64,000 nucleotides of DNA from assembly GCA_032718475.1 (NCBI GenBank), contig JAUCBJ010006028.1:19724-83723 (forward strand), in the 5' to 3' direction. Positions 23,617 to 53,600 of this stretch are shown here, piece by piece; the stretch's first letter is position 1; every line of letters starts with the position of its first letter. Both the position numbers and the translations under genes were made by a program. The notes under the pieces were generated by a model, which saw only the letters and a list, made by a program, of their open reading frames with translations, was not told where the DNA came from and made no database searches. The stretch is from Nemertoderma westbladi. Lineage: Eukaryota > Animalia > Xenacoelomorpha.

Positions 23617-26600
23617 GTAATTTGAGTTTAATCTTTCATGGTTAATTGGTTCTAATTTTAATTGGCTGTACTAATTAAGTTTCACCTAAATTTAAGTTTC
23701 ACGAAAAATATTTATTGTTTAACTTAACTAATCGTTTAGGAAGAACAGCGGCAGAAGATTCTGATTGGTGAATCACCGGATCCTCTTCCATTCAATGTGA
23801 TATCCAGCCAATCAACTGGTAGACCTGGTTGCATTATTGAGCTCGGTAGTCTCGACCAATCATCACAGGTTAGACAACATTTAATAGAACTGTCAGTTCA
23901 GAACTGGTGTATGTTGATTTGTTTATTAATTTTAATTTATGGATAAATTATTTCATCATGCTTCTTTCAAAATTTACAACTCCTCTGTTATATTTTTCTT
24001 GAAAGTTGAAAGCTTGCATCTCTAACATTGACAACCTATCAGAATCAGAAGTAACAACTATTTACCTACTGAATATTGAGCAAACCTTTTATAGCTGGTC
24101 TATTGTAATATAGACAACGATTTTTTACCAGCTGAAAGTTAAATGTATGTGTGAACCGGGATTTACCGAAGTTACCGGATATCATTGGTCGATATGGGTG
24201 TTCTGGTTGCATTTAACTCACATCTCTCGGAGGTCGTGGGTTCGATCCCCACATGGGGGCAAGTGGAGTTTTCGTTTCGTCACGAATGCTTTAAGGGACT
24301 AGCCAGGGCGCATATTATCTGCCTTGCATCTTTACATGGTAGCTAAATGGCGGTGCACATGGTGCATCGCAAAATCGGTGCAATTCGGTGAAAGGTGATG
24401 TAATGGCTTTTTGTGACTACACAGTTTATGGTGGAAACCTGAGCCCAGCTATTAATTGTACGTGATAGTTATTTAGGACTAGGACAGGGTCCAGCTAATG
24501 TACGTGTTTGTGTATTTAGGACTGGGACAGCGTCCAGCTAATGTACGTGTTTGTTTATTTAGAACTAGGACAGAGTCCAGCTAATGTACGTGTTTGATTA
24601 TTTAGGACTGGGACAGAGTCCAGCTAATGTACGTGTTTGTTTATTTAGGACTGGGACAGGGTCCAGCTAATGTACGTGTTTGTTTATTTAGGACTGGGAC
24701 AGAGTCCAGCTAATGTACGTGTTTGTTTATTTAGGACTGGGACAGGGTCCAGCTAATGTATGTGTTTGTTTATTTAGGACAGAGTCCAGCTAATGTACGT
24801 GTTTGTTTGTTTAGGACTGGGACAGAGTCCAGCTAATGTACGTGTTTGTTTGTTTAGGACTGTGACAGAGTCCAGTTGATGTACGTGTTTGTTTGTTTAG
24901 GACTGGGACAGGGTCAAGCTAATGTACGTGTTTGTTTGTTTAGGACTGTGACAGAGTCCAGTTGATGTACGTGTTTGTTTGTTTAGGACTGGGACAGGGT
25001 CAAGCTAATGTACGTGTTTGTTTATTTAGAACTAGGACAGAGTCCAGCTAGTGTACGTGTTTGATTATTTAGGACTGGGACAGAGTCCAGCTAATGTACG
25101 TGTTTGTTTATTTAGGACTGGGATAGTACGATGATGTACGTGTTTGTTTTTTTTAGGACTGGGACAGGGTCCAGCTAATGTACGTGTTTGTTTATTTAGA
25201 ACTAGGACAGAGTCCAGCTAATGTACGTGTTTGTTTATTTAGAACTAGGACAGAGTCCAGCTAGTGTACGTGTTTGATTATTTAGGACTGGGACAGAGTC
25301 CAGCTAATGTACGTGTTTGTTTATTTAGGACTGGGATAGTACGATGATGTACGTGTTTGTTTTTTTTAGGACTGGGACAGGGTCCAGCTAATGTACGTGT
25401 TTGTTTGTTTAGGACTGGGACAGGGTCCAGCTAATGTACGTGTTTGTTTGTTTAGGACTGTGACAGAGTCCAGTTGATGTACGTGTTTGTTTGTTTAGGA
25501 CTGGGACAGGGTCAAGCTAATGTACGTGTTTGTTTGTTTAGGACTGGGACAGAGTCCAGCTAATGTACGTGTTTGTTTGTTTAGGACTGGGACAGAGTCC
25601 AGTTGATGTACGTGTTTGTTTGTTTAGGACTGGGACAGGGTCAAGCTAATGTACGTGTTTGTTTGTTTAGGACTGGGACAGAGTCCAGCTAATGTACGTG
25701 TTTGTTTGTTTAGGACTGGGACAGAGTCCAGTTGATGTACGTGTTTGTTTGTTTAGGACTGGGACAGGGTCAAGCTAATGTACGTGTTTGTTTGTTTAGG
25801 ACTGGGACAGAGTCCAGCTAATGTACGTGTTTGTTTGTTTAGGACTGGGACAGAGTCCAGTTGATGTACGTATTTCCCGAACAGTTTATTATTGGCGGTA
25901 ATACTTCGTTCGCAAGCAAACCTGCTGCCGAGACTCCAACCGACAACAGCTCCCCTCTACTCGACCTCTTTAAGGAGCGATTCTTCGTCGTGGTTCTCGA
26001 GAGCGATACGATACACATGTGGTTCCTTTCTATTACTATTCGTAATTCTGGAGTTGCATCCTTTAGCCAATGTTAGTGCTAAACGTGTGAGCCACTTGGG
26101 GTCACTATTATAAGACAATGAGAGGCACAACAGCAGCCGCTAACATAGCAGATAACATAGAAAATGTTTTAAGAAACCCTAAAGTTATTTTTATAACCAA
26201 CCCTTTGCTAAAGTTGATGATGTGTCTAAAACTCTAAATCACAATAACTATTTTATTATACTAATATACCGGGCATTTATTTTAATCCAGACAGATAATA
26301 CCAGAACCCTATAAGTTCATCTTGAAATCATTGTCGTGCATCTGTTTAGGGAGAGCGCCAATGTGATTGTGTTACAATATTACCATTACAGCTACTAAGA
26401 AACTTATAACTCAATCTACGACCTTATCCGTGGACCCTGATTGGTCATCCGACGATGACTCAGACAACGTTTACGAGGAGTTCTCATCGATGTCGAATTT
26501 CTATAATCGTATGAGAACAACCGCATCTAATAATTCCACAGCTAAACTTCATGTTAACACTAAAAAGGTATAAAAACTAATTTATTAAGCTATCAATGTA

Positions 26601-50600: not shown

Positions 50601-53600
50601 CATTTCGTATTATTGTTTATAATCCTTTCTTCCTGATTGATACCTGGAACATATATTCTGGAACTCAGACTGGGTTTTGTGAGGTCTTAAATCGATGACA
50701 GTTAGTCTGCCTGCCTGTTGGTGGTAAAGTGATTAGGGGACATCTGCTTAGAATTTGCTTATAATTCTATCGAGTTGACACTTTAACATAAGTTTGTCAC
50801 GTGGCTCTGGCTCATTTCGTGTACATTATATTAGCCAGAGTCTGCCTTTTTTATTTCACTTTGCAGTTTACCCCAATGTGAAGAATAACAGGTTTTCACT
50901 AAAAATCCAGGTTACAGGAGGACTTCATCTAACCAAAACAATAAACGAATTAGTATCTGTACAGATTATAAGATATATATAAGAGCTGTAAAAAAAACTT
51001 AATAAGGATAAATCTAAAAAATTGAAAGTCATCATAAAAAATTACAATACAGTTTGTACGGAAAACTGAACATGGTCAGTTTTCTTAACATGGACGATTT
51101 TTTCCTATCTATAAATAAATAAATTATTTCCAGAATGTGGCTACACCTGTTCAATTCGACTAGAAGACGACCTCGGCGCCTTGTCTCCAGTATCTATGGA
51201 GCGGAACCCTCCTAGCCAATCAGCGGCCTCGCGATTACACGAAATAATACAGGAAGAGAAAGTCGTGTTCGAGATGAAGCGAATAAGAGTTAAACGTAAG
51301 CGCCGGTGGTTGAAAGCCAATCAGATGCTGCTGAGGACGTTCCTTAACTACTGTAATCTATATGGCGCCGCTGGTGAGTTATCAGTCAATGCAATAATGT
51401 GCGGCAATTAATTCTGGTAGTTTGTTGATTTTACAAAATTATTTCACGTGAAGTATTTCAATGAAGTTTTTGAAATTAAATTTTTTTGATTTCATTAAAT
51501 TTATTCCAATCAGAGAATTCAGCGACTCATCTCGTTTGTCTCTTATTCCGTGACTGCTTTATTATAATTTTAGACTGTTTTATATATTTTATTTTAGAGT
51601 TTTACTGTGTTACTAGACCGTATTCCGCTTTTGCCACTCGCACTACATTACTAATCCTCGATGTCCTCGATTACAATTATATTAATTATATAATAATAAT
51701 AAGTCCCAACCCAATCTTTATCGAACCAAAACTAAACACTAAACAGTCTAGTCTTCAAACCCCAGGTAGGTACCCCAAATCCACCCCCTGTATTTTTCAA
51801 TTTAAAAAATACAAAATATTTAAAAAATTCAAAAGTACGGGTAATTTTCTGTATCATGATTTTTTAAAACCTCACATTGAGGTGATAATACATTGAGGTG
51901 CAATATATTTAGTATTACATGAAAAACAAAATAATCGGTATTTTCACTAGGGCCCATTCATTTACTTTGACTTCCTTCTAAACTTATATACTTAATAATA
52001 TACTTAATATAGTACAGTAAGTATTTTTTGTATACTGTAGGTGGTGGATTAGCATCAGTTCGAATGGAACTAATAATTCTACTACAAGAACTGGCCCAGG
52101 ATGTTAGAAACCCACACAATCTCCATTCCCCGGTACCACTGGCTACGTCACTTCCGTTAGTGAACGCCACCTTATCGCGAAGTAAAGAAATCGTTGCTGA
52201 TCCCGTCGTTCATCTACGCAACGTTGTCAAAGAAATTTTACTTTCGGTCAAAGAATTTACTAGCCCACCAATTACAGACTCTGGTAAGTTTATTAGTTTA
52301 CTAGCCCACCAATTACAGACTCTGGTAAGTTTATTAGTTTACTAGCCCACCAATCACAGACTCTGGTAAGTTTATTAGTTTACTAGCCCACCAATCACAG
52401 ACTCTGGTATGTTAATTCGTTTACTAGCCCACCAATCACAGACTCTGGTAAGTTTATTAGTTTACTAGCCCACCAATCAAAGACTCTGGTAAGTTTATTA
52501 GTTTACTAGCCCACCAATCACAGACTCTGGTAAGTTTATTAGTTTACTAGCCCACCAATCACAGACTCTGGTAAGTTTATTAGTTTACTAGCCCACCAAT
52601 CACAGACTCTGGTAAGTTTATTAGTTTACTAGCCCACCAATCACAGACTCTGGTAAGTTTATTAGTTTACTAGCCCACCAATTACAGACTCTGGTAAGTT
52701 TATTAGTTTACTAACCCACCAATCACAGATTCTGGCACCATCGAAAACCTATAATATTCAACTAATATCGTATATCTATCTACCACGCTTTAGCGACTTG
52801 ATATTTTGCGGCACATGCCACGGGACAGATATACCACAAAGAGGACTGCTATGTCATACTATAAACTTGTGTATGAGAGAGCTTGAGTTAGTAAACAGTC
52901 ATAAAGCCTACTAAACGTAAACTTGACAATAATGTATAACCCATAACAACAAATCACTGGCACTACCACCTAATGAATGTTGTGTGCTGCCTTATATACT
53001 CATACGTGATGAATATTGGTTACAATGTAGGAAAGCTGATTTCATGAGCCTTGATATTGGTGGTGTGTGATATAACCAATAAGAGCTGACCAATTATCAC
53101 TGTCACTGTGTTGACATTATATTGTGTTTCAGTCAACGTATAAATCTGAGAGTGACTAGAAGCGGGATGATATTGAGTTATTGGATTATAGGTATGGAAT
53201 GATAGGATGAGATAATGTAACTTTATTAATTTATTTACTTTAAATAACTTTATTCATTTATTCATTTATTACATTATTATATTATTAGAACTTATTTGTT
53301 TTCTGAGATAGACCTCACTAGAAATATTTTAATGCTACGCTCTTTAATGACGCACTCGAAATATTTTAATGCTACGCCATTGTTACGCTTGACTTGCAGA
53401 CTGACTTGCATTAACAATGTGGGAAGGTGGTGGGAATGTGGGAAGATGGGAATGTGGTAAGGTGGGAAGATTGGAAGGTGGGTGGGAATGTGGGAAGGTG
53501 GGTGGGAATGTGGGAAGAGGGGAATGGTGGGAAGATGGGAATGTGGGAAGGTGGGTGGGAATGTAGGAAGATGGGAAGGTGGGTGGGAATGTAGGGAGAT

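Follow-up and report, generated by a model that had tools for sequence, protein, structure and literature searches.

Tandem repeats across exon-intron boundaries were reportedly first described in amphioxus by Canestro 2002, which later work cites as the original paper. Such repeats, found there at 5′ and 3′ boundaries, are named mirages, with examples in Adh3, the globins BflGb6 and BflGb9, troponin C and PGBD5 (PMC3087553, PMC3902484). They are unstable in length, RT-PCR (reverse transcription PCR) suggests normal splicing, and their origin was called unclear (PMC3087553). In human, junction-spanning variable number tandem repeats (VNTRs) are described for F7 IVS7 (37 bp), CBS IVS13, IFI 6-16, lamin B2 and PDGFA, and experiments on F7, whose donors are identical, showed use of the most upstream one alone (PMC1557585). 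The intron-18 VNTR of ABCA7 has a unit of ~25 bp and over 200 copies when expanded, and its internal donors lead to premature stops (PMC13747324). In the Rogers model of intron gain, and in the potato RdRp case, a tandem duplication creates a new intron (PMC4974935); human splicing-associated repeats provide further background (PMC10078293). Listings of the open-access literature yielded no genome-wide test of mirage enrichment at junctions. Here we analyse a 64-kb stretch of Nemertoderma westbladi DNA (contig JAUCBJ010006028.1, positions 19,724 to 83,723; in the following "the window"), in which five minisatellite-sized arrays (units of 28–69 bp, 11.7–249 copies) meet splice sites of a DMXL (rabconnectin-3 alpha) gene. 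Three of them are true mirages and two are junction-adjacent VNTRs. The DMXL arrays are thus a dense example, from another animal lineage, of an already named but little-studied class of repeats.

The exons of DMXL were located by tblastn with full-length homologues and GT/AG boundaries were then set by phase, so that the splice sites are predicted from reading frame and homology. The resulting model has 25 exons and 24 complete introns and encodes 1,827 aa with 0 stops, which supports the claim of an intact protein made by an earlier reading of the letters alone (the sequence-only reading). It aligns with all three full-length homologues tested (identity 33–39%); an 84-aa exon gives the Pfam Rav1p_C match and resembles DMXL proteins at ≤69% identity. 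Exon lengths are very uniform (129–405 nt, median 213). The modelled junctions over the 43-, 28- and 41-mer introns lie within well-aligned stretches of the homologue alignment, while those over the 69- and 32-mer introns adjoin variable stretches and depend more on frame.

Arrays were detected with Tandem Repeats Finder (TRF). TRF and the 25-exon model agree with the sequence-only reading on five arrays at splice sites and on their coordinates (Table 1). Each had been described as phased to a functional splice site; indeed all five meet a modelled GT/AG boundary, but only in the 43-, 69- and 41-mers does the unit cross the exon-intron boundary as in a mirage. The 43-mer holds 33 acceptor copies and the 69-mer 13, and in both the frame is kept by the last copy (25843 and 29294), whereas in the 41-mer it is kept by the first donor (52283). 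Identical core splice sites, the real one included, number 16, 13 and 11 in the 43-, 69- and 41-mers, respectively. That each unit was built from its own local junction and not from a shared satellite was likewise confirmed within the window: for four of the five units a match search found nothing elsewhere, and the sole other match of the 41-mer unit consists of two degenerate copies in its own intron.

Like amphioxus mirages, these arrays have boundary-spanning units at 5′ and 3′ sites and leave the protein intact, their unit sizes overlap (Adh3, 10–72 bp), there are several per genome, and evolution is concerted inside the cluster. They differ in belonging to another animal, one that lacks a close relative in the databases, in copy number (33 here versus 3–6 in BflGb6) and in combining three spanning and two abutting arrays in one gene. 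The 41-mer also resembles the human VNTRs of the F7 type, in which the first unit spans the exon-intron border and is followed by identical donor pseudo-sites, and in which mostly the first donor is used. The human VNTRs described are, however, all donor-side and occur one per gene, whereas two of the present arrays are acceptor-side and need their last copy. Since the last acceptor copy must be chosen, 5′-to-3′ scanning fails to explain the 43- and 69-mers.

The 32- and 28-mers are wholly intronic and do not span a boundary in the manner of mirages. The pyrimidine tract of the 32-mer had been read as running into the AG at 30898. The array does adjoin this site but halts one base before the AG is complete, and its copies have CATTAT as against CATTAG at the real site; because the copies lack the G of the AG, it contains no decoy acceptors, and the acceptor is present only once, as the real one. 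Similarly, the 28-mer begins at the donor GT as claimed, but its copies correspond to intron positions +1 to +28 and are preceded by TGA, TGG or TTA instead of the exonic CAG; exon sequence is not copied, so the junction is not spanned. Its donor-like sites (207 GTGAGA and 160 GTGAGT) are weaker than the real donor of this intron (2.5 and 5.1, respectively, versus 10.6 in leave-one-out scoring). As a directly donor-adjacent intronic array of very high copy number, with internal donors whose use would give stops, it is comparable to the ABCA7 VNTR, for which mis-splicing has been measured in human.

Table 1. Position of the DMXL gene and of tandem arrays in the window.
Feature	Position	Strand	Remarks
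DMXL (rabconnectin-3 alpha) gene	23405..57249	+	tblastn; stop-free spliced model; Pfam Rav1p_C, E 2.8e-16
43-bp mirage array	24457..25871	+	33.3 copies; unit 14 nt intron + AG junction + 29 nt exon
69-bp mirage array	28434..29322	+	12.9 copies; unit 40 nt intron + 29 nt exon
41-bp mirage array	52256..52735	+	11.7 copies; unit 28 nt exon + 13 nt intron
32-bp intronic array, pyrimidine-tract region	30467..30897	+	13.5 copies; last base is the A of the AG that precedes the exon starting at 30899
28/29-bp intronic array	31526..38604	+	~249 copies; begins at donor GT; occupies 7.08 kb of the 7.18-kb intron 13
Two degenerate older 41-mer copies (55705–55788), then 55-nt native intron remnant to acceptor	55705..55833	+	
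19-bp array, acceptor-like, mid-intron 14	39368..39467	+	5 copies; counter-example
30/33-bp array, intron 18	41933..44191	+	scored as unanchored
8/16-bp GGGAAT-type array and 72-bp dispersed-family array, intron 22	53416..55590	+	counter-examples; between young and old 41-mer copies
31-bp array	1..20845	+	≥672 copies; 95% matches; ≥20.8 kb; left end outside window

Each decoy site was swapped into the DMXL model and the frame was read. A premature stop resulted from 421 of 422 swaps, comprising all acceptors of the 43-mer (32/32) and the 69-mer (12/12), all donors of the 41-mer (11/11), all GTGAGA sites (207/207) and 159 of the 160 GTGAGT sites. The lone stop-free decoy is the GTGAGT donor at 31549, which adds 24 nt in frame. 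Because the protein is restored only by the exon-contiguous copy, any mis-splicing would be expected to feed nonsense-mediated decay, an established pathway. Use of the nearest decoy acceptor would lengthen the exon from 229 to 272 nt at the 43-mer and from 232 to 303 nt at the 69-mer (median exon 213 nt). According to the sequence-only reading the gene is spliced past large sets of near-identical decoys; this applies to the 43-, 69- and 41-mers and weakly to the 28-mer, but not to the 32-mer.

The arrays also retain traces of their history. The 43-mer forms a three-unit higher-order repeat of 129 bp, with which the real exon copy is in register (25585, 25714 and 25843 are identical); thus, the turnover extends to the exon edge. 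In the 28-mer, a block of ~50 units is duplicated in register. Coding constraint on the array copies was considered, since common variants seem synonymous, and was rejected: the exon-derived parts of the 43-mer copies hold stop, missense and deletion changes, as expected of neutral DNA. In intron 22 young 41-mer copies at the donor are followed by ~3 kb of other DNA, the old copies and the native remnant. The other splice site of the array-bearing intron lies in unique sequence in all five cases. Together with the native remnant this indicates that existing introns were enlarged and none was made, and the connection to intron gain drawn in the sequence-only reading is not supported. The signature of intron gain, namely both splice sites or a recruited new donor stemming from the duplicated segment, was absent from the five introns. 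The resemblance to the Rogers model is that the duplication crosses an intron-exon boundary; in contrast to that model no new intron is needed, as each array occupies an intron that has unique sequence at its other splice site.

The 24 complete introns contain nine arrays of ~5 or more copies. Two arrays in incomplete introns, a 13-mer at 57686 and the 31-mer, were omitted from this count, to which they could add only non-hits or unknowns. The sequence-only reading had left out four of them (19-, 30/33-, 8/16- and 72-mer) that meet no modelled site, so that the score is 5/9. Arrays make up 52% of the intron bases in these introns (36% for the five site-touching arrays alone), and with each array reduced to one unit the median intron length is 270 nt. 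The shuffle proposed earlier was run in this gene by sliding whole arrays within the expanded introns and indeed gave P ~1e-8, but this value was rejected as inflated because the array itself lengthened its intron. Under a collapsed-intron null, seeds were instead placed at random in introns with arrays collapsed, the edge homology being read by eye from edge alignments, except in the four unanchored arrays, which were given a value of 5 nt. The expected number of hits was 1.83 for the host introns (P of ≥5, 0.013), 1.27 for all introns (0.004) and 2.01 without the 5.9-kb intron (0.028). The three spanning arrays do not by themselves exceed chance (3 observed versus 1.1–1.7 expected, P 0.08–0.23). 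Setting intron 22 to 100 nt gave P 0.20, which is taken as an upper bound only, because so short an intron 22 wrongly shortens the target of two later insertions. A swap-free scan of the 48 junctions gave 8/48 at P<0.05, which are the five known arrays and three weak AT-rich matches, but no further convincing junction copies. The 2.5–4-fold junction excess in DMXL is suggestive and not established, as the events are few and the window was picked afterwards for looking remarkable; this residual excess may be real or a product of window choice.

We consider it probable that the five arrays are minisatellites of the mirage type, i.e. local duplications of exon edges that were amplified by slippage and unequal exchange and are tolerated by way of splicing. 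In all likelihood they do not represent a new splicing device but result from unstable DNA and are tolerated. Four of nine arrays touch no site, and the array share of intron bases indicates that the region is array-prone in general, both of which favour this explanation. The second alternative of the sequence-only reading, that repeats arise locally and survive where they are spliced out, fits, with local origin and an intact protein both supported. Each unit is a copy of its own neighbourhood of 28–69 bp. The seed would have come from replication slippage or break repair with an edge homology of 0–15 nt, and because the introns were short its chance of touching a splice site would be about 1 in 7 to 1 in 5. 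Subsequent growth, likely by unequal exchange, left behind the higher-order repeats with exon copy seen in the sequence. The only copy used would be the one contiguous with the remaining exon, namely the first donor through 5′-to-3′ selection and the last acceptor through exon definition. Were a decoy occasionally used instead, the transcript would contain a premature stop and be degraded. Seeds lying entirely within exons would be purged, which would account for one-way growth into introns.

Several observations weigh against this explanation. Over positions −20 to +3 the nearest decoy acceptors do not differ from the real ones (nor do 15 copies other than the real one in the 43-mer and 11 in the 69-mer), exons of 272–303 nt are not prohibitive in size, so that accurate site choice is assumed, and the used splice sites are those of the model, not observed ones. 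Moreover, all three spanning units carry 28–29 nt of exon (29, 29 and 28 nt in the 43-, 69- and 41-mers), a feature that the explanation does not account for, and the 28-mer starts exactly at intron +1. Spanning or abutting arrays number 5/9 versus 1.3–2.0 expected (P 0.004–0.03, collapsed-intron null), or 5/7 versus 1.0–1.7 (P 0.0007–0.006) without the two dispersed-family arrays. The constant exon part, the start at +1 and the excess at sites would all suit a seeding process biased towards junctions, in which breaks or stalls associated with transcription and with the assembly of spliceosomes (R-loops, exon-edge pausing, RNA-templated repair) start duplications and ordinary amplification follows; the old degenerate 41-mer copies also suggest that this junction was duplicated repeatedly. 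Nevertheless we regard such a bias as unlikely. It is drawn from a single gene picked afterwards, the spanning arrays alone do not exceed chance, the junction scan added nothing convincing, and spliced mRNA was not the template, as the units retain intron sequence. Amphioxus units range from 10 to 160 bp, so that no fixed footprint is known from the examples described there (PMC3087553). Doubtful, too, is the more far-reaching version in which a splicing- or transcription-coupled process preferentially seeds duplications at junctions with a fixed 28–29 nt of exon and re-seeds them from the live edge, so that introns have grown mainly in this way and the spliceosome picks the last of up to 33 acceptors. 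If true, the choice of the last among so many near-identical acceptors would offer a natural system in which to study the selection of 3′ splice sites. Alternatively, arrays could arise anywhere, with flanking intron being deleted up to the splice signal or exon and with arrays that preserve or multiply signals kept longer. The 28-mer stops at the GT and the 32-mer at the A of the AG, and losing any more sequence there would break splicing; the 43-mer copies each bear a branch-point-like CTAAT or TTGAT before the pyrimidine tract. However, 100–590 nt of unique sequence remain on the far sides of the same introns, and we consider this bias of trimming or retention quite improbable.

A function of the decoys, either in tuning DMXL dosage by unproductive splicing or in recursive stepwise removal of the introns, appears very improbable. 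Partial use of decoys is described for human CBS and 6-16 (PMC1557585) and read-through into the donor-adjacent VNTR for ABCA7 (PMC13747324), and the 30/33-mer unit combines an acceptor-like (5.7) and a donor-like (10.0) motif with 3 nt between them; an AG directly joined to a strong GT, as in recursive splicing, occurs in 0/5 arrays. Against a function, the copies drift neutrally, the 32-mer offers no decoy, and the GT within the 43-mer scores only 1.4 compared to 8.4 for the median real donor. Least credible of all is that the arrays were inflated or invented by the long-read consensus, although the in-register duplication of ~50 units in the 28-mer and the low depth of the 69-mer in run X2 (below) could be taken in this sense. 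DNA from outside the assembly was available as short-read contigs of three runs (X1–X3; two samples, two studies; X1 may be the window's own sample), and the check covered two of the five arrays, the 43- and 69-mers. A fourth run, X4, yielded no contig over 25755–28540. The unique contig stops at the 43-mer edge (25842) in all of X1–X3. At the 69-mer it stops at 28470, within the first copy, in X1 and X3, and X2 departs at 28408. A 77-nt contig of the 69-mer has a depth of 408.5 versus 46.4 for unique sequence in X1 and 269.8 versus 28.7 in X3 (~9x). In X2 the matching 99-nt contig reaches 53.8 versus 23.2, only ~2.3x, with a 32-nt skip at the array flank, contig depth being a poor measure of copy number. 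These data confirm that the 43- and 69-mers are multi-copy in outside DNA of two studies. The same unit variants recur there, and the variants are structured rather than random, which argues against an artefact.

Whether mirages favour junctions could be decided in an array-rich genome such as the present one. Furthermore, the acceptor-side 43- and 69-mers, with their identical decoys, are a natural experiment on how the last of several 3′ splice sites is chosen, a case that lies outside the F7 donor-scanning model.

Among the arrays away from splice sites, an exon downstream of the 19-mer was ruled out by stops in three frames within 12–16 codons. A micro-exon at 41929–41959/41963 beside the 30/33-mer may exist, which would make this a sixth anchored array. 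Homologues are longer by ~10–35 residues at this junction and three in-frame candidates passed the score filter; all of them require the weak acceptor 44305 (−0.5 versus 7.8 at 44298). The dispersed family, a GGGAAT-rich tract beside a 72-bp unit, occurs in both orientations (45446–45634, 50412–50944, 53416–55590 and 56815–56828) and was amplified within intron 22. Two other intronic sequences were noted. A TTAGG-rich degenerate tract in intron 10 (29800–30000) contains several donor-like motifs and weakly matches the real donor (P 0.013), and the stretch 27555–27616 is common to other loci, with many loose-ended contigs in X1–X3.

The DMXL gene extends past both ends of the modelled span. Because residues 1 to 590–820 of the homologues have no match within the window, its start probably lies upstream of it and the 31-mer is probably intronic, filling an upstream DMXL intron of over 23 kb. 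This array could be donor-anchored at its left end. An exon at its visible end was ruled out, since each of the three frames meets a stop within 21 codons and the acceptor scores −3.0. DMXL may host as many as three nested single-exon genes. An intronless open reading frame of 550 aa (20915–22567, − strand), leucine-rich by eye and without a match in a Pfam search, ends 70 nt from the 31-mer and is probably nested antisense in a DMXL intron. An intronless, GC-rich beta-tubulin gene (46284–47615, − strand) lies antisense within intron 20, and an intronless NAB (NGFI-A-binding) gene (59936–61351, − strand) is probably inside the DMXL intron after 57249. Finally, an open frame of 252 codons (48067–48822, + strand), for which a Pfam search gave no match, bears a Cys/His motif reminiscent of the C-terminal end of a non-LTR (long terminal repeat) retrotransposon.

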